DNA from: an uncultured Gammaproteobacteria bacterium
GTDB lineage: Bacteria; Patescibacteriota; Microgenomatia; UBA10105; UBA927
Assembly (NCBI GenBank): GCA_964596355.1
Contig: CAZQTD010000001.1
Location: 68,446 to 132,445 of the forward strand
Direction: 5' to 3'
Length of the DNA: 64,000 bases
Of this stretch, positions 27,454-54,534 are shown in pieces; the stretch's first letter is position 1, and the number at the start of each line of letters is the position of its first letter. The translations under genes and the position numbers were made by a program. Under the pieces are notes generated by a model that had not been told where the DNA came from, made no database searches, and saw only the letters and a list, made by a program, of their open reading frames with translations.

Positions 27454-28857
27454 ATGAACCACACAAATCCGTTTGACAGTGCGATGATCCAGCTTGAAAC
27501 CGCCTCGCGCTTGCTGGAGGCAAGCGACAAGAGAAAAGCGATGCGCAAAATAAAGCAACAATTGGAAATTTTCAGGCAGCCGCAGCGAATTCTCAACGTA
27601 ACGATCCCGGTCGCGATGGATGACGGGAATATCAGGATATTTCAAGGATATCGCGTGCAGTACAACAACGCGCTGGGGCCGTATAAAGGGGGCATCCGTT
27701 TTCATCCGCAGGTTTCCATGGATGAAGTGAAGGCGCTTGCGTTTTGGATGGCGATGAAGTGTGCGGTTGCCGATCTTCCTTTAGGCGGCGGCAAAGGCGG
27801 CGTTATTGTAGACCCCAAAACGCTTTCAGCGCGTGAATTGGAGCTTTTGAGCCGCGGCTACGTTCGCGCGATAGCCGACTGCATCGGCCCGGATAAGGAC
27901 GTTCCTGCGCCCGATGTTAATACCAATGGGATCATCATGGGATGGATGGTGGACGAGTATATTAACGCAGCAGGGAGAAAGCATCAGATATCAAGCGAAG
28001 AGAAAGAGAAGCTGCGAGCGACGTTTACCGGAAAACTCATGAAAGACGGCGGGAGCGAGGGCAGGGAAGAGGCAACAGGGAAAGGGGGAGTATATGTTTT
28101 GGAAGCAGTGCTTAGCAAAATGAAATCCAAAATCCTAAATCCACAATACAAAACAAATTCAAATGGTAAAAGAGTCAATAACCACAGAAGTTTAGAATTG
28201 AGGGCTTTGCATGTTGATTTTCCGCAGCCGCTCACGGTTGCGGTGCAGGGTTTTGGGAATGTGGGATACAACGCGGCGAAATTTTTGGATGAAGCAGGAT
28301 TTAATGTTGTTGCCGTGTCCGACAGCAAGGGCGGCATTTACGTGCCGGATGGCATAAATCCGGCGTTGACGCTTGAATGCAAGCGGAAAAATGGAACGCT
28401 TGCCGGATGTTATTGCACGGGGTCGGTATGCGATGTGAAAAAGGGCAGATACATCAGCAATGATGAAGTATTGGAGTTGCCGGTGGATGTCTTGGTGCCT
28501 GCGGCGCTTGAGAACGTCATTACGAAAGACAATGCGCCGAAGATTAAAGCAACGATTGTGTTAGAGATGGCCAATGGCCCCACAACGCCGGAAGCGGACA
28601 GGATCCTTTACAAGCGCGGAATCACGGTTATTCCCGATATCCTCGCAAACAGCGGCGGCGTGACGGTATCGTGCTTTGAATGGGAGCAGAATTTGAAAGG
28701 CGAGCATTGGAGCAAAGATGAGGTAAACAAAAAGTTAAGAAAAAAGATGGAGGCGGCGACGGATGCCATCTGGAAAACTTCCAATAAGCTCAAAACCGAC
28801 CTTCGCACCGCGGCATTCGTCGTTGCGCTTAGGAGAATTATGACGAGAATGGAATAA
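27454..28857 (+). CDS. gdhA: Glutamate dehydrogenase (Glu/Leu/Phe/Val dehydrogenase family)
   Basis: Catalytic KGGIRFHP...GGGKGG, Rossmann GFGNVG. Carries an AT-rich in-frame insertion, residues ~KSKILNPQYKTNSNGKRVNNHRS. The track start at 27394 is a TTG. Confidence 0.85.
   Translation: MNHTNPFDSAMIQLETASRLLEASDKRKAMRKIKQQLEIFRQPQRILNVTIPVAMDDGNIRIFQGYRVQYNNALGPYKGGIRFHPQVSMDEVKALAFWMAMKCAVADLPLGGGKGGVIVDPKTLSARELELLSRGYVRAIADCIGPDKDVPAPDVNTNGIIMGWMVDEYINAAGRKHQISSEEKEKLRATFTGKLMKDGGSEGREEATGKGGVYVLEAVLSKMKSKILNPQYKTNSNGKRVNNHRSLELRALHVDFPQPLTVAVQGFGNVGYNAAKFLDEAGFNVVAVSDSKGGIYVPDGINPALTLECKRKNGTLAGCYCTGSVCDVKKGRYISNDEVLELPVDVLVPAALENVITKDNAPKIKATIVLEMANGPTTPEADRILYKRGITVIPDILANSGGVTVSCFEWEQNLKGEHWSKDEVNKKLRKKMEAATDAIWKTSNKLKTDLRTAAFVVALRRIMTRME
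28120..28200. repeat. AT-rich in-frame insertion element in gdh
   Basis: gaaatccaaaatcctaaatccacaa matches 22 of 24 positions to the element in the DUF2298 gene (50497..50548). Confidence 0.6.
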
Positions 28858-28962
28858 CGGAATTCCAAGGGGTGTGAACACTGTTCACTCCGGGGGTGAA
28901 CTAGCTAGACACCGTCGGGATGAAGGACGAAGGTGCCTTTCCCATATTTGCCCCGTAGCTCT

Positions 28963-28991
28963 TGACAACGTTCGCAGGAGCGGGGTACAAT
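28963..28991 (+). promoter_or_regulatory. Consensus sigma70 promoter TTGACA-17-TACAAT
   Basis: cTTGACAacgttcgcaggagcggggTACAATa read directly. It faces the tRNA-Ala/23S/5S unit. Confidence 0.6.
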
Positions 28992-29121
28992 ACATTTTTG
29001 CCTTATGATGCAGGGCAACTGATGCGACGTGTTTCACCACACTCCATCCTTTTCATGAGAACCAACACGATACAAAACCTACCAAACCGCTTGGACCGTT
29101 TGCGTATGTAGAGAGTGTTGT

Positions 29122-29155
29122 TTCTCTGTTGAAAGCCCCGCATGAGGCGGGGTTT
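29122..29155 (+). terminator. GC hairpin plus T-rich tract (intrinsic terminator or rRNA-leader attenuator/boxB-like)
   Basis: aaagCCCCGCatgagGCGGGGtttatttgtt, ~130 nt downstream of the promoter. Confidence 0.5.
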
Positions 29156-29287
29156 ATTTGTTCGTCCTGAACCTTACTATCATTGGAATGAAGCTGATAC
29201 AGCTACATCAAGGGGACCGTTCGCGCACTATGGCTACTTGCTTCTGTCAACAATGTAGCGTTTTAGCGCCGTGCCAATGTGCTTATT

Positions 29288-29360
29288 GGGCCCGAAGTTT
29301 AGCTGGTTGAACGCTTCATTTGCAATGAAGAGGCAGGCGGTTCGACTCCGCCCGGGTCCA
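29288..29360 (+). tRNA. tRNA-Ala (anticodon TGC)
   Basis: Manual cloverleaf: acceptor GGGCCCG/CGGGTCC with G3:U70, D-arm with AGCTGG, anticodon loop TTTGCAA, T-arm GGCGG-TTCGACT-CCGCC, discriminator A. Positions 8-9 are AA, which is unusual. Confidence 0.8.
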
Positions 29361-29765
29361 CTTAAAATACTTGTTATATTGCTACATTGCTGCATTGTTG
29401 GAAAACAATGCAGCCATTTGACAATGTAACAATTGAGTAGCACGTTAACAACTCAATGACTCTATGAAATCAGGTGAAATTCCTGATGCATAGAATGTTA
29501 TAAGTAGTTGCATCGTAAGGGGTAATCCAATCCGCCAGACGGCGGAGATTACCTTTACATTTTAATTTTGTTGATGATTGAACAGTGGACCGTCAGCAGA
29601 CGGATCCTTTGTTCTCTGCAACGCTACAAGCTGACAATGGATGCCTAGGGCGCTCATGCCGAGGAAGGACGCATATGACGGCGATACTCGTCGGGTAGGA
29701 GTCATAATCCGATCATCCGGCGATTTCCGAATGGGGCAACCCATCTATCGCAAGATAGAGACTGT

Positions 29766-29905
29766 ATTGCAAAAACGGTTCGCATGGTGTTTATAAATAG
29801 TATTTTTTGAGATTAGACATTGGACAGTAGAAGTTGGATGAAGAAATTGGAAGTTAGAGATTAGAAAATCAAACCTCAAGCTTCTAATTTCTATCTGTCT
29901 ACCAT
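29766..29905. repeat. AT-rich expansion/insertion in 23S 5' domain, bounded by inverted GTTTATAAATAG/ATTTATAAACAG
   Basis: Contains GAGATTAGA x2, GAAGTTGGA and AAATTGGAAGTT, modules that also occur in CDS insertions and in intron 2. Confidence 0.55.
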
Positions 29906-30239
29906 CAAATTTATAAACAGCATGCGGATCGGGATAGCAGTACAGGGGATACCATCCGAACTGAAACATCTCAGTAGGGTGAGGAAAAGAAATCAAGCAC
30001 GAGATTCCGTTAGTAGCGGCGAGCGAAAGCGGAACAGCCTAAACCCGCAAGGGTGTTGTGGGTCAGGAGTTATGGGATGTGTTGAGGATAGGAGAATACT
30101 GTGGAATAGGTAACCAAAGGGAGTGAAAGTCTCGTATCCGAAATCCAAAACACCTCTATTCTGTTCCCAAGTACCATGGGCCACGAAGGGCCTGTGGGAA
30201 GCTGGGTCAACCACGATCCAAGGCTAAATACATGAGTGC

Positions 30240-30278
<39 letters not shown>

Positions 30279-30344
30279 CACCCCGGAAGGGGAATGAAAG
30301 AGTACCTGAAATTGTCAGCTAACAAACAGCGAGAGGCGTGCTTT

Positions 30345-30445
30345 GCACGCTGGTAGTTCATTGTTCATCGTTCATGGTTCATAGCCACAATGAATTTTTC
30401 ATTATACCTATGAACTAATAACTATGAACCAATAACTATCAGCAT
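30345..30445. repeat. Second AT-rich expansion in 23S (GTTCAT/ATGAAC repeats)
   Basis: Low-GC palindromic segment between conserved 23S blocks. Confidence 0.5.
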
Positions 30446-31902
30446 GCAGAGCATGCTGATCGCGTGCCTATTGAAGAATGATCCGGTGAGTTTTCCGTCA
30501 ATGCGAGCTTAACCGCGTTCAACGCGGGAAGGCGCAGTGAAAGCGAGCCCTAAATAGGGCGACAAGTATTGGCGGACAGACCCGAAACCAGGTGAGCTAA
30601 CCATGAGCAGGGTGAACCCCGCAGAAGTGCGGGGGGAGGCCCGAACTCGTCAGAGTTGCAAATCTGTGAGATGACTTGTGGTTAGGGGTAATATGCCTAT
30701 CGAACCTGGAGATAGCTGGTTCTCCCCGAAATATATTTAGGTATAGCGGTATTGTTATCTCATGAAGGGGGTAGAGCACTGAATGATGTCGGTTTCGCAA
30801 GGAATCGGCATCAATCAAACTCCGAATACTTTCATGAGTATCTTGCCAGTCAGACATGCACGGCTAAGCGCGTGTGTCAAAAGGGAAACAGCCCAGACTC
30901 ACATCTAAGGTCTCTAACTGCATGCTAAGTTGGTAAGGAAGTCATGGTTTTAAGACACCCAGGAAGTTGGCTTAGAAGCAGCCACCTTTTAAAGAACGCG
31001 TAACAGCGCACTGGATGAAAGCCGTGGCGCCGAAAATGATCGAGGATTAAGCATGCGACCGACGATTGAGCTTTCGGAGAATAGAAAACAGAGGAAGGAA
31101 CAGTTGCAATTCCGTCAATTGCGTCATCTAAATGCGTTGTCTGTCCTTTGTTTTCTGTTCTCCGGAGGGGTAGGGGAGCGTCTTCTGTGCGGTGAAGGTC
31201 AGGCTGTAAGGCCGGCTGGAGCGCAGAGGAGTGCGAATGCCGGAATGAGTAGCGTTTGAGGGTGAGAATCCTTCATGCCGAATGCGCAAGGTTTCCGAAG
31301 CAACGTTCGTCGACTTCGGGTAAGTCGGACCTAAGGCGAGTCCCGCTCCAAGCGGGGGTAGCTCGATGTAGAAACGGTTGATATTCCGTTGCAACTGTGT
31401 GTCGATTCAGACTCAAAGGAATGACAAAGGGGGACAGGTCTCGCCGTGTTAAGCGCGGCCAAGCTTCAAAGTAGCGATAACTGGCAAATCCGTTATTGTG
31501 TTAAACATGAGGAGCGATGGGGAGGTCAAACCGCAAGGGGCGGCCAAGAGAGATAGTTTCGCTTTCGAGAAAAGTTTCGTTGAGGAGCACATAGTTTCCG
31601 TACCGCAAACCGACACAGGTGCGCTGGTAGAGTATACCAAGGCAAGCGGGTGATCGTGGTTCAAGGAACTCGGCAACAAAAACTAGGCGTAACCTATGGG
31701 AGATGCCTTGCCCAGCCACTGGCTGGGCCGCAGTTAACGACGCTAAGCGACTGTTTAACTAAAACACAGGTCTCTGCGAAGCCGCAAGGCAATGTATAGG
31801 GGCTGACACCTGCCCAGTGCCGGTAAGTTAAAAATAGTTGATGACTTGAAGCAATTTGAGAAGTTAGCTATTTAAGCTCCGGTGAACGGCAGCAGTAACT
31901 AT

Positions 31903-32636
31903 TAACACAGTTAGTAGTTGTAAAAGTTGACTAAATGCTGGAAGAGCCGTACCTAGTTCTGAGAAAAATCGAAGAACGAACGGTTGAAGTATCTGACGCT
32001 ACCAGGTATACTGGTAACAATGCGGTCAGTGCGGCAAATCAGCAGGAAAGACTTGAAAAAGGAAAAACTTGGCTATTTCTTAGCAGGGTTTGTAGAAGGT
32101 GAGGGAAGTTTTAATGTATCTCTACGGCGGAAAGCTGACTACAAAGTCAACTGGCAAGTCGTGATGAGCTTTAATGTTTCGCAAAAGGATCCTACAATAC
32201 TTAAAATATTGAGAGAAGAAATTGGATGCGGGATTATTAAAGTTCGAAAACAGGATGGTCTTCACTCCTACGACGCTACAAATCCAGAAGATTTAATTAA
32301 GTACGTCATTCCATATTTTCGTAAATACCAGATGGTATCCGAATCCAAAAAGCGAAACTTTGCGATTTTTTGCAGAATTGCGAAACTTATGGAAAAAGGA
32401 GGACACAGAACGAAATCCGGATTAAAGCAAATCCTTCTTCTTCGTGAAGGAATCAATGAAGGGAGGGGAAGGACAAGAAAATATGGTATTCACGACGTAT
32501 TTCCTCTTCAAGAATCCTCAGAGACTACACGTCAACCCCCGCCTTCATCATAATGTATGAGGGATTGGCGGGGATGATATAGTCCGACCTCATGGGCGAC
32601 CATGAGAGCCGTACCCAATCGGCGTATAACAAAGTG
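31903..32636 (+). mobile_element. Group I intron in 23S rRNA (helix 69 region, near E. coli L1915-1917) carrying a homing endonuclease gene
   Basis: Joining the exons restores GTAACTAT|AACTGTTCTATGGTAGCGAAATTCC. The 5' exon ends in U and the intron ends in G. It encodes a LAGLIDADG ORF and shares a ~80-nt conserved 3' core with intron 2. Confidence 0.7.
32020..32553 (+). CDS. LAGLIDADG homing endonuclease (intron-encoded)
   Basis: LAGFVEGEGSF motif, single-motif type. Lies within the 23S intron. Confidence 0.85.
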   Translation: MRSVRQISRKDLKKEKLGYFLAGFVEGEGSFNVSLRRKADYKVNWQVVMSFNVSQKDPTILKILREEIGCGIIKVRKQDGLHSYDATNPEDLIKYVIPYFRKYQMVSESKKRNFAIFCRIAKLMEKGGHRTKSGLKQILLLREGINEGRGRTRKYGIHDVFPLQESSETTRQPPPSS

Positions 32637-33296
32637 AACTGTTCTATGGTAGCGAAATTCCTTGTCGGGCAAGTTCCGACCCGCACGAAAGGTAGAACGA
32701 CTTAGCGACTGTCTTGAACCATTACCCGGCGAAATTGAAATGGCTGTGAAGATGCGGCCTACTTGCACATGGACAAAAAGACCCCGTGAAGCTTTACTGC
32801 AGTTTGGCACTGAGGACTTTATTTTGACTGTCGAGCATAGGTGGGAGACTTCGGTCGCAACATGGAATACCACTCTTCGAAATGAGGAAATCTTACTTAC
32901 TCCTGCATAAAAATCCAGGAGGAGGACACTGTCTGACGGGCAGTTTAACTGGGGAGGTTGCCTCCAAAACTGTAACGGAGGCGTACAAAGGTTGGCTAAC
33001 CCTGAATGGAAACCAGGGCGTGTCGTGCAAACGCGATAAGCCAGCTTGACTGCGAGAGTTACCGCTCGAGCAGATGCGAAAGCAGGTGTTAGTGATCCTC
33101 GCATCCCTCGTGGGAGGGAGCGGGCTTAACGAATAAAAGCTACTCCGGGGATAACAGGCTGATCGCTTCCGAGAGTCCATATCGACGAGGCGGTTTGGCA
33201 CCTCGATGTCGGCTCATCCTATCCTGGGGCTGGAGAAGGTCCCAAGGGTCCGGCTGTTCGCCGGTTAAAAGGGTACGCGAGCTGGGTTCAGAACGT

Positions 33297-33689
33297 AGGT
33301 GATACTGCGTTTGGCAACAGTGATGTTGCTTTAGTATCGGCTGTATCGGTGAAGCCTAATGTCATACCGAACATGACTATGGTAATACCGAGGGAAGTCG
33401 GTCTCATTGAGACTAGACATTAGACTTTAGAAGATTGAATTTGAAGTTTGAAAGATAGAAGATAGATTTACATGATTAAGACATTTCGAGATCTTGAAGT
33501 CTATCAAGAAGCATATCAGCTTATGCTGATAATCCATTTCACTATCTATTTTCTAATTTTCTATTGTCTAGCGACAATTGACTTGACCCCGTAGAGACTA
33601 CACGCCGACCCCCGCCTTCATCATAATATATGAAGGATTGGCGGGGTGAAGATATAGTCCATACCACTGGAAACAGTTGGAACAATATG
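33297..33689 (+). mobile_element. Second group I intron in 23S (E. coli L2593-equivalent site), HEG-less, with nested AT-rich MITE-like insert
   Basis: Exons AGAACGT|CGTAAGACAGTTCGG. The 3' core GACTACACGCCGACCCCCGCCTTCATCATAATATATGAAGGATTGGCGGGG is nearly identical to intron 1. Confidence 0.65.
33407..33567. repeat. AT-rich ~160-bp element with terminal inverted repeats (GACTAGACAT...TGTCTAGC) nested in intron 2
   Basis: The terminal inverted repeats are read directly. The interior shares AGACATTAGAC / GAAGATTGA-type modules with the 23S 5' insertion. Confidence 0.5.
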
Positions 33690-34102
33690 CGTAAGACAGT
33701 TCGGTCTCTATCCTGTGCAAGCGCTCGATTCTTGAGGGGAGTTCTCCGTAGTACGAGAGGACCCGGAGGAACAGATCCCTGGTGTGTCTGTTGTCGGTAA
33801 ACCGGCATCGCAGAGTAGCTAGATCTGGAAGGGATAAGTGCTGAAAGCATCTCAAGCACCAAGCCCACCCCAAGATAAGGAATCGTTTGAGACTCGTTGT
33901 AGATGACAACGTTGATAGGCGAGGAGTGTACGCCCCGTAAGGGGCTCCAGCTTACTCGTACTAATCAGTCGAAGTTGCGGAGAACAAAGGAACGCACCAG
34001 TCGGTGCATTCTGCTTGTTCAACCAACGAAATGAATAAGAGGTAATCTACCGGGTTGCCCCTTATGATGTAACTACGTATGGAAAGATTTTGCGTTGAGA
34101 CC

Positions 34103-34218
34103 TTCGGTCTCTTGAGCCGTATGGAACCACCCTTTCCCATTCCGAACAGGGAAGTGAAACATACGAGCGCCAACAATAGTTGATCCGCGAGGGTCCGCGA
34201 AGATAGGTCGAGGCCGGG
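34103..34218 (+). rRNA. rrf: 5S rRNA
   Basis: CCCATTCCGAACAGGGAAGTGAAAC and GAAGATAGGTCGAGGCC conserved blocks; terminal helix TTCGGTCTC/GAGGCCGGG. Confidence 0.75.
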
Positions 34219-34243
34219 GATCCCAGCGCAACATCAGTGCCTA

Positions 34244-34957
34244 TCATTGAGACGCTGCAGACCAATTCAAATGCGCGGCATTGCCGGGTTTAGGCGATGA
34301 CGGTTCAATGCCAACACTGAGCAAATCTCCCGTAACAAACGCTTCGCTGTGTATTACATCAGAACATGCAGTATTCGCATCGGCTATGGTACACGTTGTT
34401 GGCGTATTCACTCCATTTTTTCTCAGTGTGATGACCCAAAATTTTCCAGTTCCCGGAGCAGAAGAGACATGAACAAGCAGGGTGTTGATGGTCCCTGCGC
34501 GAATCGGCACCTGTCTTTCGGCTTCGGTATCATGGAATGTAAATGACCCTGCTGTACTGTATGTAGGGCCGTTTTCATCAGGATTTCCTGCGCCAGCAAG
34601 CAGCATATATCCATTCATTCCCTGCGGCCCGGTTGGTCCGGTCGGACCTGTTTCTCCGGTTGCGCCTTGACTTCCTGTAGCGCCTGTGGGACCCTGACTG
34701 CCCGTTGCCCCGACTGCCCCTGAAAGCTTTAGTGTGACAAGCGTATCTCCCCTCATGCATTGATTTCTCAACAGTCCATCGCCAATGACAACAACCAATC
34801 CGCTCCGTTTAATACACAGTTCTAGCGTCTCGTGGGTATAGGGCTTGGGGAAATGCAGGCGGTTGAGGATATCGTCGTTGTCTTTTGCATACACAGTTAT
34901 TGATGGAACGATAAGCGAGGCAAGAGCAAGGACAATGACATATTGAACATGGTTCAA
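34244..34957 (-). CDS. Collagen-like triple-helix repeat protein with C-terminal BclA/C1q-like globular domain, signal peptide
   Basis: A (G-x-T)n run GAVGATGSQGPTGATGSQGATGETGPTGPTGPQGMNG, an N-terminal signal peptide, and a ~110-aa C-terminal beta domain. Confidence 0.75.
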   Translation of the reverse strand: MNHVQYVIVLALASLIVPSITVYAKDNDDILNRLHFPKPYTHETLELCIKRSGLVVVIGDGLLRNQCMRGDTLVTLKLSGAVGATGSQGPTGATGSQGATGETGPTGPTGPQGMNGYMLLAGAGNPDENGPTYSTAGSFTFHDTEAERQVPIRAGTINTLLVHVSSAPGTGKFWVITLRKNGVNTPTTCTIADANTACSDVIHSEAFVTGDLLSVGIEPSSPKPGNAAHLNWSAASQ

Positions 34958-35230
34958 ACGAATTCACCTCCTTTCGCAATAACTATATTCCTGTTAGCGA
35001 GCGGTATTTGTTCTAACAAAGAGCCAGCGCACCGTCACTATAAATGTTTATGACAATAAATCAACTGGTGTAAAGCATATACGACCATATCGCACATGTC
35101 ATGCCAAGAGTAATACTGTTTTTTTTGCGTGATGACGGTTGGAGTTGGGCGCAAGTACGCAGTTCTTCTTGAGTTCGGTGCGCGTTTCCGATATAATACC
35201 ACTATTCCAAACGAAAGGCGGTAGGTGTGA

Positions 35231-36427: not shown

Positions 36428-36535
36428 TATCAAAGTGGATTGTTTCACAAACAGGGCGGTTCCAACTGCGCGCACGGCAAAATTTCTGGATGAACGATAG
36501 ATCGTCATTTGCCTGTCAGCAGTTTTTACGACGGG

Positions 36536-39678: not shown

Positions 39679-39714
39679 TCTCCATATTGACACTTATCTT
39701 TTGAATGCTGTACA

Positions 39715-40527: not shown

Positions 40528-40533
40528 CGACCG
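40519..40533. repeat. 15-bp direct repeat ATTTTCTGACGACCG (copy 2), overlapping the stop codon of the PaaX-like gene
   Basis: Exact match to 39664..39678. Confidence 0.7.
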
Positions 40534-41067: not shown

Positions 41068-41357
41068 GAGCAGAGCTCTTTTTTTTTACCTTGCTTTCCC
41101 AAGTGCCAGTACAGGGGACACTGACAGCCTTAACCTCATTTCTATCAAAAGAAAATATGGTGCGGCCGATCCGGCTGTTTTCCCCCTGGTGATACATTGG
41201 GATAAAAGAGACATAATGAACGCCCCCCCAACGTGCATGTACTTGGGCCTGTTTGATCAAGAAGATCATCGATCGCGGCGTTTCTTGACTCATGCGTGCA
41301 GGGGATAAAGCGGAACGTGTCGCATTGACGCGGGCTTTGGAAGTGGAAGGTTATTGC

Positions 41358-42791: not shown

Positions 42792-43130
42792 GTAAACGTA
42801 GTGTACACTACGAAAGTCCATTGCTGTCAACCAGTGTGACGCGCGGGTCGTGCCGTGTTTACTATTATTTGCGCCCAGTCGTAACAAAATTTCCTAAGAT
42901 CCCGGCTCGCAGGGTTATCATCATGCGTGCCTCTTCTTGTTTATCTGGCTCGCGTCATCCACCGCATAAGCTGGTGGGTTCCGCGTTCATTGCTCGAGCC
43001 TTCTGGAGTTTAGCTCGGGTGGGATCTACGGAAATTTTATTCTGCCCGCGTGCTTCTCTGTCATAGTGCTTATCTACCAACAGATACATATACAGGTATA
43101 CGTCCGTAATGTGTGTTACAATTTGAAAAC

Positions 43131-43943
43131 ATGAAAAAGGCAGTCAAGCCGGCGCCGCCGAAACCCGGTACGCGGTTTGAGTCATTTACCAAGCCCACAA
43201 CAGAATTTACTAAGGCGCTTGCCGAAGAAATCGTCAAAGGATTGACGAGCTTTGGCAGGTTTACCGCGCGGCCGTTTACCCGCCCTCCGGTCGAAGTGCC
43301 CAGCGAGCCTGCGGGCGTTCCCAAAAAACCGTTTGACCCCGGAGAGCACCCGATCGTTGTGGACACAAGCGCGCTTATTGACGCGCGGATTTTGCCTATC
43401 GTCAACAGCGGATTTTTAAGCGGCACGCTTATCATCCCTGAATTTGTCTTGGGCGAAGTCCAGCACATCGCAGACAGCGCCGATTCGCTTCGGCGCGCCA
43501 AAGGCAGGCGGGGACTGGATATTGCCGGCAAAATACGCACGCAAAAGGCCAACAGCCTCGTTAAGACGGTTGTCGTTTCTGAAGATCCGCAGGACATAAA
43601 CGAAGTGGACCATAAGCTTGTGGCGCTTGCCAAGCGGTGGCATGCGCGGCTTTTAACCGTAGATTTTGCCTTGGGACACCTTGCACGCGCTCACGGCGTG
43701 TGGGTCATCAACGTGACCGATCTTGCGCAGGCACTGAAAGCGTCGCTTATGCCGGGCGAAGAACTCACAATCAAAATTGCCCATGCAGGCAAAGAGCGGG
43801 AGCAGGGCGTTGGATACCTTGGCGACGGCACGATGGTTATTGTCGATAACGCAAAAGATAAAGTAGGTCAGGAACTCATTGCTGTGGTTACTAAAATCCA
43901 CCAAACCCCCGCGGGTCAGCTGTTTTTCGCGAGACTGAAGTAA
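43131..43943 (+). CDS. PIN and TRAM domain protein (YacL-like)
   Basis: PIN acidic residues (VVDTSALID...), C-terminal TRAM beta-barrel GELTIKIAHAGKEREQGVGYLGDGTMVIV. Confidence 0.8.
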   Translation: MKKAVKPAPPKPGTRFESFTKPTTEFTKALAEEIVKGLTSFGRFTARPFTRPPVEVPSEPAGVPKKPFDPGEHPIVVDTSALIDARILPIVNSGFLSGTLIIPEFVLGEVQHIADSADSLRRAKGRRGLDIAGKIRTQKANSLVKTVVVSEDPQDINEVDHKLVALAKRWHARLLTVDFALGHLARAHGVWVINVTDLAQALKASLMPGEELTIKIAHAGKEREQGVGYLGDGTMVIVDNAKDKVGQELIAVVTKIHQTPAGQLFFARLK

Positions 43944-44094
43944 CGCTCTCCTGCGTCCACACGAATGTCGAGGACGGCACACGTTATCCTAAACTTATCC
44001 ACAAAATAATTTGTAAAAGTTTTTGGCGCGCCATAAAGGGATAAATAGTAATTAAAAAACTATAAGTCTATGTTTTTTTTCATATGAAAATCCT

Positions 44095-44340
44095 ATGGGA
44101 CTTGACAAACAGCGTTGGACGGTGTTTGATAGATATGTGATACGGCTACTGCTAGAAACATTTGGGCTCTCTTCCGCAAACGGCGGAGAAGAGAAGGGTT
44201 TCGCACATTTTTTGGGCAAGAGGCGCGAAAAGCGGGAATCGCCGCTTGCGGCCGAACGCAAACGCTACAGTCGCGAGGTAGGCGATCAGCTTGCGGCACT
44301 TACAAAGAAGGGGCTGCATATCCCCGTATTTACGCTGTAA
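44095..44340 (+). CDS. Hypothetical basic protein (81 aa)
   Basis: An ORF followed by a canonical terminator; no recognisable domain. Confidence 0.35.
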   Translation: MGLDKQRWTVFDRYVIRLLLETFGLSSANGGEEKGFAHFLGKRREKRESPLAAERKRYSREVGDQLAALTKKGLHIPVFTL

Positions 44341-44360
44341 AAGACATTGGGCACAAAAAG

Positions 44361-44384
44361 ATCCAGCCGACGCTGGATTTTTTT
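44361..44384 (+). terminator. Rho-independent terminator
   Basis: ATCCAGC-cgac-GCTGGAT followed by TTTTTT. Confidence 0.6.
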
Positions 44385-44763
44385 GTGGGAAACTGTTTGA
44401 GGCGAAACCCTTCGTGAGGTTATGTCCTGAATGGGAAGTTGATCGCCTGCCCAACAATCAACTCCCCATTCAGCACACGTCTCGTCAACGGCACAACACT
44501 CAAGCCTATTATCGTCCGCACACCAATGCTACTCGATTATTGATAGAAAGATTGTTTCGTTGGGATTGTATATCGCAACATGCGGCTTGTCAAATGGTTC
44601 CGTGCGACCGCTTTTCAGGGAGATGATTTTATCGCGTCACAACAATCTAAAGAAAACAAGTTGGCTTCGACAAAAAAGTTGACAGAAAAATCAGAGGTCT
44701 GTTAGTGTAGGAAGTTAGGCATCGTTCTTTTTGCCCAATGAGGACGCTGCCAACATTAAAAGG

Positions 44764-44820
44764 CATTACTACTCGTAGCGAGACCCAAACCCAAAGCTAG
44801 CGGTAGTGATGCTTTTTTTT
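44764..44820. terminator. Long imperfect hairpin flanked by A-run/T8; likely bidirectional terminator
   Basis: CATTACTACTCGTAGC...GCTAGCGGTAGTGATG followed by CTTTTTTTT. Lies at the 3' end of the minus-strand GT-C gene. Confidence 0.55.
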
Positions 44821-44837
44821 CGTGAACAAGCGTTTTG

Positions 44838-46535
44838 TTACGGGCAGATTGTTTCTGTTGCAAAAATTGCCGAGCGCCTGTCAGAAGAAACAAACGCCGG
44901 CTGGTATGTCGCAAGGTAGTACGAAAGATCGATCCGCGGCAAATTAGAATCGCCCTGCACGTCTTTCACCGTGATAAACGAGATGTTATACCGCGCAAGG
45001 AGCGGACAGATGACGCTCGTGTCGCGGCTTTCATACATGGTGTTCATCACAGGCATTCTGTTTTCGCGGTATCCCGCGCTCCAGGGAAAGTACGGCCAGC
45101 CCAGAAAAATCCGTCGTCCCGCAATGGAAGCGGGATGATACAGATACTGGTGGTTGAGAAAAATAGCGCCCGGATCCGTGTTGCGGGCGATCCAAGTCGC
45201 TGCCTCATCGGCGGCCACATCCGGCACTCGTCCACGCGTGTCGTTAAATACAACGAAAAAATCGATGAGGCCGCTTAGTGTGAGCGCGCCCACAAGGCTA
45301 AGCGCGGTAACCGCCTGAAGAAGCAGCCTCAATGGCCTCATGGGTACGCGGCTCCACTGGTGAAGAATCCACACAATGGCGTATGCAGAAAGCATGGCGC
45401 CCAGAATCATCATGAAGTTAAAGAATTTGTGGTTCGCGGTAACTTCTACAGAGAACTTAAAGAGGTTGGGGATCAGAAACAGGGGGATAAGAGGGAGGAA
45501 AAGCCTTTTGGTTTTGAGCGGGACAAGGAGGAATCCGATCGGGACAAGGATCGCATGGAGGCCAAGATTGTAGAACCAGTGGGTAACGAATGCGGAAACG
45601 GTCAGCTCATTATGGAGAATGTACCCGGGGTGCCACTCAAACGCTTGTGCGCTGCCTTCTGGCATCGTAAGGATTTGTGGGAGAATCAGAAGCAATCCCA
45701 GAGCGCCAGTTGCTACAAGAAACCATCGAAGGCGCGGAAAACCAAGGAAATATACTGCCATGATGATTGCAGTGATAAGAAGCGTAGGCTGGTGGAAATA
45801 CGGGAGGATGCCCATGGCGATGCCCCAGAGGACTGCCCATGGGAGCTGCGTGCGACGTGGTTTGCGCATGAGCGTTAGGCAGTGTAGGATAAACAGGAGA
45901 ACGAGCGCAAATGCGGCGGCCAAGTGACGCTGGTTCGTGTAGATATTCAGATTCCAAAACGCAGTCACCCAGCCTTCGCCCCACGGCGCAAACGCAGGGA
46001 ACTCGCGGGCGTTGATGATGTCCTGAATTGTGCGGGTCGAAAGCGGGTGGGTGTGGAAAAACCGCAGGAATGCAAGCGATCCGTTGAACAAAAAAAACAC
46101 GAGCGACAACAGGGCAACCGCGGGCTTCTTGAAAACTTGTAGGGCAAACAGATAGATGCCGGCAAGCAGCAAAAAGAATCCCAGCGCGCTGGGCACATTG
46201 AGCGCCCAATCAATGCGAACGCCGATACGCTCAAGCAAGCCCACGAGCATGTAAAAGAGGAAGTGATAGCGGATTGGCTCTCCTGGGAAGATGGGGTACT
46301 CGACCCCCCGGCCGTCGAAGAGCCGCGAGAGATTGTCTCCCATGGAGAAGGAGCGGATGAGCGGGATGTGCGCGCCAAAATCGCTCCAGAGCTTTAAGGC
46401 AATGGTGATGGACTGCCGTTTGGCGTCATATCCGAACGTGTGGAACATGAGGAAGAAAGAAAAGAGAAGCAGGAATGTCATCCCGGCGGAAGCTGGGATC
46501 CATTGTTTTCGTATAACCTTACAAGATTTTTTCAT
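44838..46535 (-). CDS. GT-C-fold glycosyltransferase, ArnT/PMT (GT39/GT83)-like polytopic membrane protein
   Basis: About 13 TM helices; an N-terminal periplasmic-loop acidic motif region. Confidence 0.65.
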   Translation of the reverse strand: MKKSCKVIRKQWIPASAGMTFLLLFSFFLMFHTFGYDAKRQSITIALKLWSDFGAHIPLIRSFSMGDNLSRLFDGRGVEYPIFPGEPIRYHFLFYMLVGLLERIGVRIDWALNVPSALGFFLLLAGIYLFALQVFKKPAVALLSLVFFLFNGSLAFLRFFHTHPLSTRTIQDIINAREFPAFAPWGEGWVTAFWNLNIYTNQRHLAAAFALVLLFILHCLTLMRKPRRTQLPWAVLWGIAMGILPYFHQPTLLITAIIMAVYFLGFPRLRWFLVATGALGLLLILPQILTMPEGSAQAFEWHPGYILHNELTVSAFVTHWFYNLGLHAILVPIGFLLVPLKTKRLFLPLIPLFLIPNLFKFSVEVTANHKFFNFMMILGAMLSAYAIVWILHQWSRVPMRPLRLLLQAVTALSLVGALTLSGLIDFFVVFNDTRGRVPDVAADEAATWIARNTDPGAIFLNHQYLYHPASIAGRRIFLGWPYFPWSAGYRENRMPVMNTMYESRDTSVICPLLARYNISFITVKDVQGDSNLPRIDLSYYLATYQPAFVSSDRRSAIFATETICP

Positions 46536-46809
46536 ACAAATCTAACCATTTTGGATTGGTCTTTTTGATTAACTCCATTTTCCAATTTCTTTTCCACCAT
46601 TTTAATTGTTTTTCTCTATGAAGAGCCTCTTTAATATCAGTATACATTTCGTAATATACAAGTCGATGCACATGATATTTTTTCGTAAAGCCGTCAACAA
46701 AACCGTATTTATGTTGGGTGACTCGTTTTGGAAGATTATTGGTGACACCGATATACAACGTTCCCCATGGCTTGTTTGCTAGGATATAGACAAAATAGTG
46801 TTTCAGCAT
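46519..46809 (-). CDS. GIY-YIG nuclease family protein (small free-standing, YhbQ/UPF0213-like)
   Basis: YFVYILANKPWGTLYIGVTNNLPKRVTQHK GIY-YIG motif. The gene is ~35% GC against ~52% for its neighbours and overlaps the upstream gene start by 17 bp. Confidence 0.85.
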   Translation of the reverse strand: MLKHYFVYILANKPWGTLYIGVTNNLPKRVTQHKYGFVDGFTKKYHVHRLVYYEMYTDIKEALHREKQLKWWKRNWKMELIKKTNPKWLDLYEKIL

Positions 46810-46824
46810 GGTATGGATTCCGGC

Positions 46825-48132
46825 TCAAGGCCGGAATGACATGAGAGACTGAGCGGCGCGTTTGCCCAGTTCGACCGCGTAGTTCGTGCCGCGGTCCCAC
46901 GGGTAGATGCTGTCGAGGTTTGCCAGATAGACGTTCGGGATTCGAGTTTCGAATTTCGCAGCGCGGGCACTGTAGTGGAGCTCGTGGACGGGCTGGGCGT
47001 ACAATCCAATAAACAAGCGGCAACTGCGCACATCAGACGCACGAAATGAAGGATTCAAGCGCTTGATATACGGGAGAAATGTCTTGAAAATCTGGGCCTT
47101 GGTCATCGCCAGATACGGGTGGCCGTCGGGCAGATAGTTGCCGAAGTAGGTGATGTGGCATCCGCCATAATACCTCGTGTCGATCATGTTGGTGTGGGCA
47201 ACGACGGCCAGGAACGGAAACGACCGGTCGGTGACGTTGAGCCAGTAGATGGAATGAAGGATCGGACTTCGAGTTTCGAGAATCAGCGTCTGCGCGTGGA
47301 GGTGGGGAATTTGAGTTGTGAGGTGTGAGTTGTGGGTCGCAAGTAGTTTTGCGGCGATGGGGGTGGGGACAGTGAGCAACACGGTATCAAAGAGGCCCTT
47401 TTTATGCCCCTGCGTCACTACCAGTTTTGTCGCCGTTTTTCTCAAGCGTTGTTGCGTTGTTGCGTTGTTGCGTTGAACAGAAGAAACAGAGGCATTGGTG
47501 TGAATTGTTCCCCCTCGGTTTTTTATTTCCTTAGCCAGCGTTTCGACCACGGTGTGGAACCCGCCCTCGATGTAGTAGAGGCGGGGTGTGCGCTTTTTAA
47601 TTCTGGCCCACAGCCATGAGGCGGCAACCGTTGGCGCAAAATCACCGAATTTTCCAATCATGAGTGGTTGCCATAGTGTCTGCCAGGCCCGTTTGCCACC
47701 TATTGAAGTAAAAAGTTGTTCAGCGGTTATGTTTTCCAGCGGCTGCCAGAAGGGATTGAGTTTCATCGCGGCGATAAGCGCGCCGGTGCGCAGGCGGTCA
47801 AACAAGGAAAGTAAGGGAAATTGCAAAAGGCGGATGGGCGAGTCGAGCTGGTAGAAAGCGCCGTTATAATAACTTGCCGTAATCGGCCGCGTAAGGAGGA
47901 GCGTATCGGTGAGGCCCAGTTCGTTGATAAGGCCGATGATCGCATGGTCGTTGGTGAACAGGTGGTGGTAGGCGTTTTCCAGATGCCAATCCCACCCGTT
48001 TTCCTTAAATCCGTGCGCCAGTCCACCCAACTGTGTATCGCGCTCAAACACGGTCACCTGATGACCCTTCTTGAGAAGCTCGTACGCCGCAGTAAGGCCG
48101 GTAAATCCTCCGCCGATAATTGCCACGTTCAT
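46825..48132 (-). CDS. FAD-dependent oxidoreductase (flavin amine-oxidase/protoporphyrinogen-oxidase-like family)
   Basis: N-terminal dinucleotide motif VAIIGGGFTGLTAAYEL...VFERDTQLGG. Start at MNVAIIGGG (48132). Contains an 8-bp tandem repeat. Confidence 0.75.
   Translation of the reverse strand: MNVAIIGGGFTGLTAAYELLKKGHQVTVFERDTQLGGLAHGFKENGWDWHLENAYHHLFTNDHAIIGLINELGLTDTLLLTRPITASYYNGAFYQLDSPIRLLQFPLLSLFDRLRTGALIAAMKLNPFWQPLENITAEQLFTSIGGKRAWQTLWQPLMIGKFGDFAPTVAASWLWARIKKRTPRLYYIEGGFHTVVETLAKEIKNRGGTIHTNASVSSVQRNNATTQQRLRKTATKLVVTQGHKKGLFDTVLLTVPTPIAAKLLATHNSHLTTQIPHLHAQTLILETRSPILHSIYWLNVTDRSFPFLAVVAHTNMIDTRYYGGCHITYFGNYLPDGHPYLAMTKAQIFKTFLPYIKRLNPSFRASDVRSCRLFIGLYAQPVHELHYSARAAKFETRIPNVYLANLDSIYPWDRGTNYAVELGKRAAQSLMSFRP
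47442..47472. repeat. Tandem 8-bp repeat (GCGTTGTT)x3.5 inside the oxidoreductase CDS
   Basis: gcgttgttgcgttgttgcgttgttgcgttg read directly; the unit is not a multiple of 3. Confidence 0.8.
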
Positions 48133-48783
48133 GCATTGATTGTACCACGCGCGACGTGTCCGAAAAGCTCTCTTGTCTTTTTTCCCCGCGTTGTATATAC
48201 TAGCGATATCGTGATGCATATGGCCCTCATTATCAGCCTGATTGCCATCCTCTTTATTGAGGACCGGCTGGTGTGGGGGAGTTGCGAAGTAACCAAGGAA
48301 CCAAGGAACGAAATAAGTCCCCACACCAGGGGGTTTTTACGTGGAATCGTTGCTCTTTTGAGTCATCGAAAAAGAGCGTATGAGCCATGCATCCTCCCAA
48401 CGTCGCACTTCGAGCCGCGCTACGAACAGGAAGTAAGGCGAGAAGGAAGGCGGGGAGGATTGATGCGAGAGAGGTAAGGATTCTACGGAATGATGCAGAA
48501 ACGGAGGAGAATTGTATGAGAAAAGGTCCGGAAAATGATGCCATTAACAGGCAGGAAGGAGGAAGCGGGCCGCAGCTGCCAGAACCTGCAGTGAGCTTAA
48601 CGCAGACGGGGGTTCCTGTTTTTTCAACTGACAAAGCCGCCATACGGCACAGAATAGTGACAGGCGGCGGCTCCGCATTTGTCCAAAATCCTGATGGATC
48701 AGCACGGTTACCAGTGGTTGATGGATATCCATATATTTACCCGGGATCAGAATAATGATGATTTGTTAGACCGTTAATGCTGT

Positions 48784-48831
48784 GCGGCCGCATGGAACAA
48801 AGCAGAAACCTACATGTCCATGCGGCCGCAA
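48784..48831. promoter_or_regulatory. 13-bp perfect inverted repeat TGCGGCCGCATGG...CCATGCGGCCGCA (22-nt loop) spanning the start codon of the DUF2298 gene
   Basis: Read directly. The right arm contains codons 2-5 of the gene, so the hairpin would sequester the translation initiation region. Confidence 0.45.
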
Positions 48832-51117
48832 CAGGGATTATACTATAATCAATCCATGGGTTCGGATATCTGGCTTGTCCTGCGCTTTTGGGGGACGCTG
48901 TTTCTCATCGGGGCAGTGGCGTTTCCCCTGACGAAACTGCTGTTTTCACCATCGGGGTTAAACCGTAAAGAACATCAAGGCCTGACGCCGGGTTGGTTTG
49001 ACGACGGTTATTTGTTTTCCAAAGCCGTCGGCATGGCGGTCGTAACGTACTTCGTATACCTCGCGGGCATGCTCGGCGTCGCGCCGTTTACCGTGCCAAC
49101 GATTGCTGGAGCAATGGGCGTCGTGTTTGTTGGGGGAATTGTACTCCTTCTGGTGTTGAGGGGAGAGAGGGGAGAGAACAAGCGCATGGTTTTTTTGCTT
49201 GCGGCGGAAGAGCTGTTTTTCCTCGTCGCGCTCGTGTTTTGGTCCTGGGTAAAAGGCCATGAGCCGGATATCCACGGGCTGGAGAAGTTCATGGACTTCG
49301 GCTTCACAAAGTCTATCCTCAACAACTTATGGTTTCCCGCGCCGGACATGTGGTATGCGGGGTTGCCGATCAACTACTACTACTTTGGACATACCGTCCT
49401 TGCCGTTCTTACCAAATTGTCGGCATTAGATCTTGCCCACACGTTCAATCTGATGCTTGCGGCACTGTTTGCTCTCACGCTGACGATGAGCTTTTCCCTA
49501 GGGGTGCAGCTCGTACGGGGAGTACGGGGGATAGGGATGAGGGGGAAGATGGCAGGAGGGATCCTGACTTCCTTCCTTGTCACGCTTGCCGGCAACATGC
49601 AGACGATCTACGCGTTCACCAAAGGCTACGTCGGAGAAAACGTCCGACCGTTTTGGACGTTGGCGTGGAGCATTGGGGAAATAGGAGAGAAGCTCGCAGA
49701 GGGCATGGAGCGCTACTGGTACGCCAACGCGACGCGCTTTATCCCCTATACGATCCACGAGTTTCCCAGCTACTCATTCGTCGTGTCTGATATCCACGGG
49801 CACGTATTGAGTTTGCCGTTTGTTTTACTTGCTGTCGCGCTTCTTATCCATATGTTTAACTTACAGGGGGATAAGGGGGATAAGAGGGATAAGGGGGAAA
49901 AGATACGGTGGGGGAATATCCTGTTTTACGGCTTTCTGTGCGGCGTGCTTCTGATGACCAATGCGCTTGATGGGCCGATATACCTCGGACTGTTTGTTGT
50001 TTTGCTTGTGGCGACTCGTTGGACAAACTGGAAACAGATCATGGTTCCGGCGGGGCTCGTGGCAGCCAGTGCAGCACTCACAAGTCTTCCGTTTCTTTCG
50101 CACTTCACATCGTTTGTGTCAGGCGTTGCGATTAACTGCCCGCCGGCATTTCTTGCAAACTCCACCATCGGGCCGTTCCTGTTTGAAGGCGTGGAGAAGT
50201 GCCAGCATTCGCCTCTCTGGATGCTCTGGCTCCTGTGGGGGTTTTTCCTGTTTTGCGGGGCATTTCTGATTGTGCGGGCGGCACGGAAGGCTGATATGAC
50301 AGAGCGTTTGCTTGTGGTAGTGTTCCTTTTTAGCATCGCGCTCATCGTGTTTCCGGAGTTTTTTTACTTCAAAGACATCTATCCCGCGCATTTTCGGAGT
50401 AACACGATGTTTAAGCTGGGGTACCAGGCATACATCCTGTTTTCGATTGTCTCGGGATATACCATTGTTACCGTTGGTTTCAGAGATCATTATGATCCTG
50501 AAGGAAAATCCAAAATCCTCAATCCAAAGCACAAAATCCACATTGGAAGAACAGTATTCCTTATGCTGCTTGCGCCGCAGTTGTTTCTCGTTTCCATCTA
50601 TCCCATTTTTGCCGTGCGGTCGTACTTTGGAGAATTGCGGCAGTACAAAGGGCTGTACGGACTGGCGTGGCTGAAGATGCGCTATCCGGACGATTGGCAG
50701 GCGATTCGCTGGCTCAATGATCAAGTCGTCAGAGAGTTGCCCGTCATCGTTGAAGCGGATGGTGACAGCTATACAGACTATGCCAGGTATAGCGCCTTCA
50801 CCGGGCTTCCAACCATTATCGGCTGGCCGGTGCACGAGTGGTTGTGGCGCGGTAGCTACGACGTGGTTGGCCCGCGCAGGGAGGACGTGCGAAGGATCTA
50901 TGAATCCACTGACGTTAATGAGACCAGAGAGCTCCTTGCGGCCTACGGCGTGCGGTACATCGTCGTTGGGCTGCTTGAGCGGGAGAAGTTTCAGAACCTT
51001 GCCGAGTGGAAGTTTGCGGCACTGGGAACGGTGGTGTTCCGGCAGGGGATTACGACACTCTATCAAGTTCGCGAGCCTATTGACAAGAAGGCCGGAAGGT
51101 GGTTAAATACCCGCTAG
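48814..51117 (+). CDS. Chlor_Arch_YYY / DUF2298 family polytopic membrane protein (GT-C-like)
   Basis: LPINYYYFGH motif, more than 15 TM helices, 9-bp tandem repeats (GDKGDKRDKGEK), and an AT-rich insertion encoding KSKILNPKHKIH. Confidence 0.75.
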   Translation: MSMRPQQGLYYNQSMGSDIWLVLRFWGTLFLIGAVAFPLTKLLFSPSGLNRKEHQGLTPGWFDDGYLFSKAVGMAVVTYFVYLAGMLGVAPFTVPTIAGAMGVVFVGGIVLLLVLRGERGENKRMVFLLAAEELFFLVALVFWSWVKGHEPDIHGLEKFMDFGFTKSILNNLWFPAPDMWYAGLPINYYYFGHTVLAVLTKLSALDLAHTFNLMLAALFALTLTMSFSLGVQLVRGVRGIGMRGKMAGGILTSFLVTLAGNMQTIYAFTKGYVGENVRPFWTLAWSIGEIGEKLAEGMERYWYANATRFIPYTIHEFPSYSFVVSDIHGHVLSLPFVLLAVALLIHMFNLQGDKGDKRDKGEKIRWGNILFYGFLCGVLLMTNALDGPIYLGLFVVLLVATRWTNWKQIMVPAGLVAASAALTSLPFLSHFTSFVSGVAINCPPAFLANSTIGPFLFEGVEKCQHSPLWMLWLLWGFFLFCGAFLIVRAARKADMTERLLVVVFLFSIALIVFPEFFYFKDIYPAHFRSNTMFKLGYQAYILFSIVSGYTIVTVGFRDHYDPEGKSKILNPKHKIHIGRTVFLMLLAPQLFLVSIYPIFAVRSYFGELRQYKGLYGLAWLKMRYPDDWQAIRWLNDQVVRELPVIVEADGDSYTDYARYSAFTGLPTIIGWPVHEWLWRGSYDVVGPRREDVRRIYESTDVNETRELLAAYGVRYIVVGLLEREKFQNLAEWKFAALGTVVFRQGITTLYQVREPIDKKAGRWLNTR
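50497..50548. repeat. AT-rich in-frame insertion element in DUF2298 gene
   Basis: aaaatccaaaatcctcaatccaaag; encodes the same KSKILNP heptapeptide as the gdh insertion. Confidence 0.6.
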
Positions 51118-54522: not shown

Positions 54523-54534
54523 TTTGCATGGCAC

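Follow-up and report, generated by a model that had tools for sequence, protein, structure and literature searches.

Several unrelated genes in a 64-kb stretch of the bacterial contig CAZQTD010000001.1 (hereafter the window, meaning the whole stretch analyzed, with a GC content of 50.7%), together with its 23S ribosomal RNA (rRNA) gene and a 23S intron, carry short AT-rich segments, and all of these segments are degenerate tandem arrays of 7-nt units of the types NNATCCA, TTGGANN, and GTTCATN. A sequence-only reading of the window had likened the segments to Rickettsia palindromic elements (RPEs), a comparison that stands for their in-frame residence in unrelated genes, and for their presence in rRNA and an intron, and that fails for a discrete element family, since only the 7-nt unit is common to them. 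It is probable, in our judgment, that the segments are heptanucleotide repeat arrays akin to the short tandemly repeated repetitive (STRR) sequences of cyanobacteria, often arranged as inverted pairs, which selection has confined to permissive loops and to the tips of helices, and not an RPE-like mobile family. Directly observed are the 7-nt periodicity and its excess, the host sites, the net insertions, the turnover between lineages, and the hairpins formed by the RNA copies.

The product of gdh, a glutamate dehydrogenase gene located just 5′ of the 23S gene, has its closest named relatives in Candidatus Gottesmanbacteria, and the host is therefore identified, from this protein, as an apparently Gottesmanbacteria-like bacterium of the Candidate Phyla Radiation (CPR)/Patescibacteria (Microgenomates). 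Periods were detected with Tandem Repeats Finder (TRF) and a lag-autocorrelation detector, with scoring against dinucleotide-type shuffles. The latter detector found nine lag-7 arrays in the window versus 0.05 in shuffles, and two, one, three, and four arrays at lags of 3, 6, 8, and 9, respectively. TRF reported more than 12 period-7 loci of 3.3–5.1 copies each, built from differing units (TCCAACA, AAATCCA, AAAATCC, GAATTAA, GTTCATC, AGTTGTC, ATCGAGT, ATCCAGC, and TGAGTTG). Among the arms and segments to which the sequence-only reading had pointed, 13 of 15 had 7 as their best self-match lag, the two others being the decayed right arm of the gdh insert and an extension of 23S helix 45. Because lag 7 dominates these arms and segments, the “modules” that the earlier reading described as shared are the repeating units of degenerate heptamer arrays, with the approximate form GANNTTR or, in complement, YAANNTC. 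Heptamer arrays of higher GC content, which that reading had missed, also occur in recF, trxB, an S1-domain protein gene, and an amine-oxidase gene (Table 1). Every array in the window lies in a coding sequence (CDS), rRNA, or intron; a predominantly intergenic distribution was not found.

The sharing of short words between segments goes well beyond composition. The EndoQ-like insert and the 23S helix 10 insert have 13 7-mers in common compared with 2.4 in composition-matched shuffles, and the corresponding values are 13 versus 1.3 for gdh and DUF2298 and 12 versus 2.0 for gdh and the glycosyltransferase gene GT4. Two overlapping groups emerge, one comprising EndoQ, 23S helix 10, intron 2, and nnrD, and the other comprising gdh, GT4, DUF2298, and nnrD. 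Within the first, the EndoQ insert has 13–15 7-mers in common with the helix 10 and intron inserts, and GAAGTTGGA, TTGGAAGTT, and GACATTAGA are indeed shared between these inserts, as the sequence-only reading had noted. For gdh and DUF2298, that reading gave a match of 22 of 24 nt; the quoted strings agree at 20 of 22 positions, the longer stretch matches at 27 of 31 nt, AAATCCAAAATCC is identical in both, and both encode KSKILNP. All of this 7-mer sharing is explained by common heptamer units. A TTGG/CCAA core was also considered as a common denominator of all units and was discarded, the enriched sub-words being A-tracts and TCA/GTCA.

Could such segments be chance low complexity or an artefact of assembly? 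AT-rich 40-mers are common in the window, where ~90 other 40-nt stretches of ≤30% GC were counted, so that low GC alone is not distinctive; moreover, the enrichment anticipated for the motif GAAGTTGGA is only marginal when one mismatch or fewer is allowed (26 occurrences versus 15 expected). Against this stand the shuffle controls, the preserved reading frames, and the occurrence of like arrays in independent NCBI, ENA, JGI, and Logan assemblies, and the explanation is effectively refuted.

The segments first singled out occur at, or close to, the positions given for them and are of low GC content (0.29–0.37), and none of those in CDSs breaks its gene. All the CDS segments are open in the host frame, whereas the other two frames hold zero to four stops, and the joint, composition-based chance of meeting no in-frame stop across 164 codons is ~9 × 10⁻⁶. 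As the frames are open against this chance, the CDS segments are under selection to be read through. Insertion status was judged from alignments of orthologues and of PDB structures, and net, lineage-specific insertions, which had been proposed for the CDS segments generally, were confirmed for gdh, the EndoQ-like gene, and the DUF2298 gene. In gdh, the insert comes after the final helix of domain I and before the strand that opens the NAD-binding domain; its left arm is (AAATCCN)×4, its right arm is a decayed TTTAGAA/TTGAGGG complement, and residues 227–255 are modeled by AlphaFold2 as coil with a pLDDT of <50. The EndoQ-like insert pairs a left arm of GAAGTTG/GACATTA units with a degenerate TCCAATC/TCAAGAT complement on the right, and it is absent from many Gottesmanbacteria orthologues, and the two closest orthologues carry a diverged form. 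The DUF2298 insert lengthens a short loop that connects a pair of hydrophobic, putatively transmembrane segments, where 60 aligned orthologues carry 0–30 aa of unrelated inserts, one of which, FSIFNFQFS, is what (TTTTCAA)n encodes. An in-frame repeat of period 9, AGGGGGATA ×4 (GDKGDKRDKGEK), is present at 49865–49902 in a second loop of this protein, and a related 18-mer, ACAGGGGGATAAGAGGGA, occurs at 45479–45496.

Other coding arrays are less clearly insertions, or are not insertions at all. The GT4 gene is 5′-truncated, and its array (lag-7 match 0.62, p < 0.0005) encodes IHSKIQHSTSNINPKIEIQNG, immediately ahead of the Rossmann domain at the C-terminus; Pfam and PDB alignments both start 3′ of the array. 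The nnrD segment falls in a hypervariable loop, whose length in homologues ranges from 3 to ~80 residues; it exceeds TM0922 by ~22 aa but its closest homologues by only ~3 aa, and is thus not clearly an insertion. In radA, the array occupies the linker that joins the zinc finger to the ATPase domain, and an insertion was rejected on the basis of a gap-free alignment to RadA of S. pneumoniae (5lkm) with a difference of only +2 aa. Insertions were similarly rejected for recF, whose PDB alignment shows ~+6 aa spread nearby, and for trxB, whose length changes by ~+2 aa in PDB and orthologue alignments. The arrays of recF (four units) and trxB (a 14-mer ×2) are the only perfect ones in the window. 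A gain or loss of one of the four AGTTGTC units would frameshift recF, a recombination-repair gene, and because of this the recF array is a possible slippage-prone switch.

The sequence-only reading had also proposed that the elements be folded. Hairpins are prominent in the RNA copies, which fold with z scores of −3 to −11, and do not extend to the CDS copies of the window, which fold no better than shuffles (z of +0.9, +1.4, +0.6, −0.2, +2.2, and 0.0); a universal palindrome was rejected for this reason. The RNA hairpins are built from a heptamer array that faces, in the opposite arm, its own inverse complement. They are found in a 23S gene of 4371 nt (29614–33984), accompanied by a 5S gene and tRNA-Ala, which contains five extra pieces, in helices 10, 25, and 45 and as two introns or insertions. 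No 16S gene was found upstream of it in the window, and CPR bacteria have been described before as having unlinked rRNA genes as well as insertions in their rRNA (PMC9297842). In Rfam searches no family matched any of the inserts, only large-subunit rRNA, 5S rRNA, and tRNAs reached their gathering scores, and group I intron matches remained below threshold.

The helix 10 extension, originally placed at 29766–29905, occupies instead 161 nt of the helix 10 loop, at about 29776–29936. It forms a long closed hairpin (−68.5 kcal/mol, z = −9.0) with arms of GANNTTR heptamers and their complement, and the lag-7 matches of the arms are 0.59 and 0.51. In helix 25, the extension measured with cmscan and MAFFT is ~107 nt (30340–30446), with GTTCATN units on the left arm, ATGAACN-type units on the right, and a fold of −58.7 kcal/mol (z = −11). 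An extension of the helix 45 loop, a 77-nt hairpin at 31084–31160, is not heptameric, its best self-match lag being 9. The helix 25 and helix 45 extensions replace terminal loops at the classical sites of 23S intervening sequences (IVSs), whereas the helix 10 site is non-classical.

Intron 1 is ~734 nt long, lies near E. coli position 1918, and contains a LAGLIDADG ORF (31984–32553). Intron 2 is a 399-nt insertion at 33297–33695 by cmscan (model position 2619, near E. coli position 2595), and its match to RF00028 (Intron_gpI; span 33287–33680, 29.2 bits against a gathering threshold of 50, E = 2 × 10⁻⁵) suggests a group-I-like element. What had been described as an insert bounded by terminal inverted repeats at 33407–33567 is a hairpin at 33402–33587 nested within this intron (z = −4.8; lag-7 matches 0.61 and 0.55). 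The LAGLIDADG ORF is present in intron 1 only, and intron 2 has the heptamer hairpin in its place. A 54-nt block, 93% identical, recurs near the 3′ ends of both introns (32520–32573 and 33593–33646), and the two are assigned to one family because of it.

Heptamer arrays are not peculiar to this window. In a comparative set of 83 Patescibacteria gdh loci (3, plus 80 more from GTDB genomes) and the window, totaling 1.39 Mb, 162 lag-7 arrays were detected, versus 31, 36, 48, and 50 at lags of 3, 6, 8, and 9, respectively. They are unevenly distributed, with 0 to 6.6 per 10 kb, and have diverse, A-tract-containing units. Two or more perfect units are present in 106 of the 162 arrays and three or more in 23, indicating recent expansion, and inverse complements make up ~17 of 36 adjacent array pairs. 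Open frames of ≥600 nt hold 55% of the arrays compared with 77% of random positions, so that coding DNA is under-populated in arrays yet far from avoided. High heptamer density is not restricted to Patescibacteria either, as a locus retrieved via gdh from an Acidobacteriota metagenome-assembled genome (L081, 65% GC) has nine heptamer arrays in 21 kb, with units including TTGGGAT and GTGATTG, and with inverted pairs among them (e.g., 1954–2001, 14702–14743, and 20914–20964).

Turnover is well seen at the gdh site, where three orthologue DNAs keep the architecture with differing units. In L001, (AAATCCN)n is set against (TTTAGAA/TTTGGAG)n (fold z of −3.1); in L003, (AAATCCC)n is set against a perfect (TTGGACA)×4 (z of −2.7); and in L002 the arms have decayed; the hairpin at this site is significant in L001 and L003, but not in the window copy. 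Among further gdh orthologues, the insert site is occupied by (GCGTCAN)n, (TNTCACN)n, or (TTCAAAG)n, in others by a palindrome rich in GC, or is empty, and copy number and unit sequence likewise vary at the orthologous sites of the DUF2298 loop and EndoQ. Elsewhere in L003, at 20360–20391, there is an (AATGACC)n array, the reverse-complement rotation of what we take to be the STRR2 unit, TTGGTCA. Beyond these genomes, the exact pattern AAATCCAAAATCCTNAATCCA was found in at least 109 metagenome stretches, and in the 80 that were inspected the GC content ranged from 35 to 66%, many occurrences were intergenic just upstream of start codons, and some had inverted partners. Given these backgrounds, (AAATCCN)n is not specific to one lineage or element.

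These comparisons bear directly on the proposal that the segments are a non-autonomous palindromic mini-element family, similar to RPEs or miniature inverted-repeat transposable elements (MITEs), that transposes into genes, rRNA, and introns and has heptamers as its internal structure. Such a family would account for within-genome module sharing well beyond composition, for units that are more alike within than between genomes, and for the hairpin architecture of many copies. Moreover, the left arm of the window helix 25 hairpin matches at 21 of 22 nt a GTTCATN/ATGAACN hairpin in the P-type ATPase gene (copA) of L001, and in sister genomes the gdh and EndoQ genes do harbor, in frame, a true palindromic element whose termini are conserved, so that the lineage can host elements of this kind. 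The likeness to the copA hairpin is, however, confined to the units, as is copy similarity generally, which is no higher than would be expected for two arrays of the same unit. A window-wide repeat search and pairwise alignment, in which termini and target duplications were not systematically mapped, found similarity within heptamer units only and no full-length consensus; no target-site duplications were evident in the sequences inspected, where insert boundaries are fuzzy, and the inverted arms of hairpin copies are themselves repeat arrays, not unique termini. The CDS copies of the window are single-armed or have decayed arms without a significant fold, unit sequences differ at one and the same orthologous site, and perfect in-situ tandem copies exist. 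Finally, (AAATCCN)n arrays in at least 109 metagenome stretches of 35–66% GC, and period-7 arrays across many Patescibacteria loci, also weigh against such a family, and we consider a mini-element origin unlikely.

The palindromic element of sister Gottesmanbacteria is of RPE- or MITE-like appearance, ~110–120 nt in length, with conserved inverted termini (AAAATTTAGATCCGTCTTC ... GAAGCCGGACRAAATTTT) and a variable center, and is read in frame as “..ANENLDPSSV....SEAGQNFVRSP..”. It occurs at L194 10540–10700 (the gdh of P0021) and L195 4720–4860 (the EndoQ-like gene of P0256), and the peptide signature “LDPSSV...NFVRS” is also present in P0027, P0052, P0110, P0252, and P0264; the element is absent from the window and the other fetched loci. 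Inteins (Pfam intein-splicing, LAGLIDADG_3) constitute another class of in-frame insertion in this gene set, occurring in some Gottesmanbacteria EndoQ-like and DNA-ligase genes (P0291, P0354; L194 1–355; L195 41–2839).

A different suggestion is that the arrays are functional and positively selected, whether as generators of disordered surface loops, which has been proposed for the tandem repeats of Borg elements, as rRNA expansion segments or RNase III-processed IVSs that would serve ribosome biogenesis, or as slippage-prone contingency switches, in which a heptamer copy number not divisible by 3 would shift the frame, as in neuO of E. coli K1. Periodicity at the gdh site does persist across orthologues whose proteins are only ~70% identical, and the helix 25 extension and its non-heptameric helix 45 neighbor occupy classical IVS positions (PMC2801512, PMC4990558). 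The recF gene would be switched off by the gain or loss of one of its four perfect units, and translated heptanucleotide repeats have a reported precedent (PMC13001214). Yet the hosts are housekeeping enzymes with no obvious on/off benefit, most arrays are degenerate and would make poor switches, and the encoded peptides are not conserved between orthologues. In addition, the lower frequency of arrays in long open frames than at random positions points to purifying filtering and not recruitment, and positive selection of the arrays is accordingly regarded as improbable.

Under the reading that we favor, of repeat arrays filtered by selection, the arrays are long simple sequence repeats whose units contain A-tracts, such as TCCAAAA/TTGGANN or GTTCATN. 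They would arise and turn over locally through replication slippage in a 7-nt register, while intramolecular template switching, joined in rRNA by selection for pairing, would generate or preserve the inverted partners. An array accompanied by its inverse complement would allow RNA or single-stranded DNA to form a long hairpin. The arrays themselves may well be neutral, with selection acting only as a filter upon them. Coding survivors would be those with a frame-keeping length, no stop, and a position in a permissive surface or linker loop, and for most of them the A-rich strand would be the sense strand, giving disordered peptides rich in K, N, Q, S, and I. Survivors in structural RNA would be limited to extensions of helix tips, such as those of 23S helices 10 and 25 and a peripheral intron loop. 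Local birth and turnover would explain why perfect copies are lineage-specific, why units differ at one orthologous site, and why there is no full-length consensus; selection would explain the siting of arrays at RNA helix tips and, as stop-free and frame-keeping arrays, in permissive protein loops.

Several points weigh against this scheme. Slippage alone does not explain the frequent inverse-complement partners, the 7-nt register is itself not explained, and the near length-neutral arrays of recF, trxB, and radA are unaccounted for. Nor is it explained why arrays are more alike within than between genomes (mean unit distances of 2.49 and 2.78, respectively; permutation p ~0.0002), a comparison that may be confounded by genome GC and is for that reason not leaned on. 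The source genome, furthermore, is covered by 64 kb only. It is the inverted partners, the within-genome likeness, the length-neutral arrays, and the register that keep a mobile or dedicated mechanism alive at low probability. Conceivably, for example, the same repeat families are sown into the proteins, rRNA helices, and introns of Patescibacteria by a process dedicated to the 7-nt register or by a heptamer hairpin that propagates itself; this is a long shot, although it would be compatible with genome-specific unit families, with inverse-complement pairing, and with the length-neutral arrays of the three genes above. If true, a single microsatellite-like source, spreading within genomes, would have given rise in these streamlined genomes both to expansion or intervening segments of bacterial rRNA and to protein loops peculiar to a lineage.

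Table 1. Heptamer arrays and heptamer-built extensions in the window (coordinates are window positions)
Feature	Start	End	Strand	Units, size, or position	Basis
GT4 array	189	247	+	~8 degenerate units NNATCCA/TCCAACA	TRF period 7
recF array	3594	3622	+	perfect (AGTTGTC)×4; encodes ELSVVSCQLS; not AT-rich	TRF, 100% match
nnrD (Carb_kinase) array	4815	4848	+	degenerate CAAAATA/CAATCCA/AATTCAA	lag 7 best, p = 0.01
EndoQ-like insert	11319	11444	+	~37 aa	gap in PDB EndoQ alignment; lag 7 best
trxB array	25910	25938	+	(ATCGAGY), equivalent to perfect 14-mer ×2	TRF
gdh insert	28109	28225	+	~31 aa	A1 and PDB 1gtm alignments; TRF; orthologue DNA
23S helix 10 extension	29776	29936	+	161 nt, in helix 10 loop	cmscan; alignment to E. 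coli
23S helix 25 extension	30336	30456	+	hairpin with 59-nt arms	inverted repeat; TRF period 7 and 14
Intron 2 nested hairpin	33402	33587	+	AT-rich GACATTA/GAAGATA units and complement; peripheral position	inverted repeats
S1-domain protein array	35305	35342	+	(ATCCAGC/GTCAAGC), in N-terminal extension	TRF; lag 7
radA array	38421	38450	+	GAATTAA ×3.4	TRF; lag-7 match 0.71
Amine-oxidase-family gene	46933	47340	-	two heptamer arrays, 46933–46961 and 47309–47340	
DUF2298 array	50497	50548	+	(AAAATCC)-type; adds ~15 aa (GKSKILNPKHKIH)	TRF; orthologue alignment

Repeats of other periods were also noted in the window. An array of period 8 is located at 47446–47475, near the heptamer arrays of the amine-oxidase-family gene, and an in-frame repeat of period 9, ACCGGAGGG ×8, spans 56198–56271. 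A dispersed motif of ~40 nt (TTTGACTAATTGGGCAAAT...) with a period-9 substructure occurs in intergenic spacers at 52772–52811, 53905–53944, and 54478–54526, and beside two tRNA-Ala genes at 54535 and 54680; it may be a promoter or regulatory repeat.

CPR bacteria are known to have unusual ribosomes, insertions in their rRNA, and protein extensions particular to single lineages, and to our knowledge the origin of their short insertions has so far gone unexplained. If heptamer arrays are a common raw material, a single mutational source would underlie some 23S helix extensions, the intron-nested insert, and many K/N/Q/S-rich loops of housekeeping enzymes, and would show concretely, and in a testable way, how bacteria could come by expansion segments in rRNA and disordered loops in proteins. 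The preference of bacteria for repeats of 7 nt, itself unexplained, would be extended to a new superphylum and to coding DNA. On the practical side, such arrays will mislead annotation that relies on alignments, the trimming step of phylogenomics, and the classification of Patescibacteria from rRNA.

Comparison with known systems begins with RPEs, which the window segments resemble in being short, in being accommodated by RNA genes and, without loss of frame, by unrelated ORFs, and in adding hydrophilic loops. RPEs, however, are discrete elements of ~100–150 bp with a whole-length consensus, whereas here only the 7-nt unit is common, length is free, and many copies are non-palindromic. The hosts differ too, being Rickettsia for RPEs and a Gottesmanbacteria-like bacterium here, a comparison made by host alone.

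Intervening sequences of 23S rRNA are known in helices 25 and 45 of Salmonella, Campylobacter, Leptospira, and Coxiella (PMC2801512, PMC4990558). In the window, as in these bacteria, the terminal loop of helix 25, and that of the non-heptameric helix 45, is replaced by a stem-loop of ~80–110 nt. IVSs are excised by RNase III, which fragments the 23S rRNA. The window differs in having a third extension, in helix 10, and in that the stems of helices 10 and 25 are built from heptamers.

Translated heptamers are likewise reported from neuO of E. coli K1, a phase-variable O-acetyltransferase gene (PMC13001214). The likeness lies in heptamers within a CDS that are read through when copy number keeps the frame, three units giving seven residues, and the difference in neuO repeats being perfect, located at the 5′ end of the gene, and acting as a switch, whereas the arrays described here are mostly degenerate, internal, and in housekeeping genes. 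For CDS arrays more generally, those of the window are of 7 nt, so that the frame rotates through the unit; in Borg elements, fast-evolving tandem repeats reportedly arise independently inside ORFs and add disordered segments, with units said to be multiples of 3 nt.

The closest likeness is to heptanucleotide simple sequence repeats (SSRs). Heptameric SSRs are over-represented in bacteria and have been noted in Nostoc/Calothrix and in Xanthomonas, with inverted pairs in Xanthomonas and Nostoc and with slippage hypothesized for the period of 7; the known arrays include the STRRs of heterocystous cyanobacteria, in which such repeats were first described, GGGAATC of Xanthomonas, and GGGGA(T/C)T of Nostoc (PMC4692102). 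The arrays described here share with them several 7-nt unit families per genome, tens of dispersed loci, an over-representation of period 7, frequent inverted pairs, and same-site variation in length and sequence between related genomes; window arrays also contain at least three head-to-tail 7-nt units, as STRRs do. They differ in their CPR/Patescibacteria host and in units that are rich in A-tracts, not in G, and that in the window are not identical to the named cyanobacterial STRR1–3 units. The Nostoc and Xanthomonas arrays are mainly intergenic, whereas more than half of those studied here lie in coding-length open frames, in frame in housekeeping genes, and those of the window also build helix extensions of 23S rRNA and of a group-I-like intron. 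An STRR inside cyanobacterial RNase P RNA provides a partial precedent for the latter. Our literature search found no account of heptamer repeats in CPR/Patescibacteria. What is new, then, is the presence of heptamer arrays in a CPR bacterium, where they are in frame in housekeeping genes and form 23S and intron helix extensions; the process behind them looks like the microsatellite type known from cyanobacteria and Xanthomonas, and not like a new jumping element.

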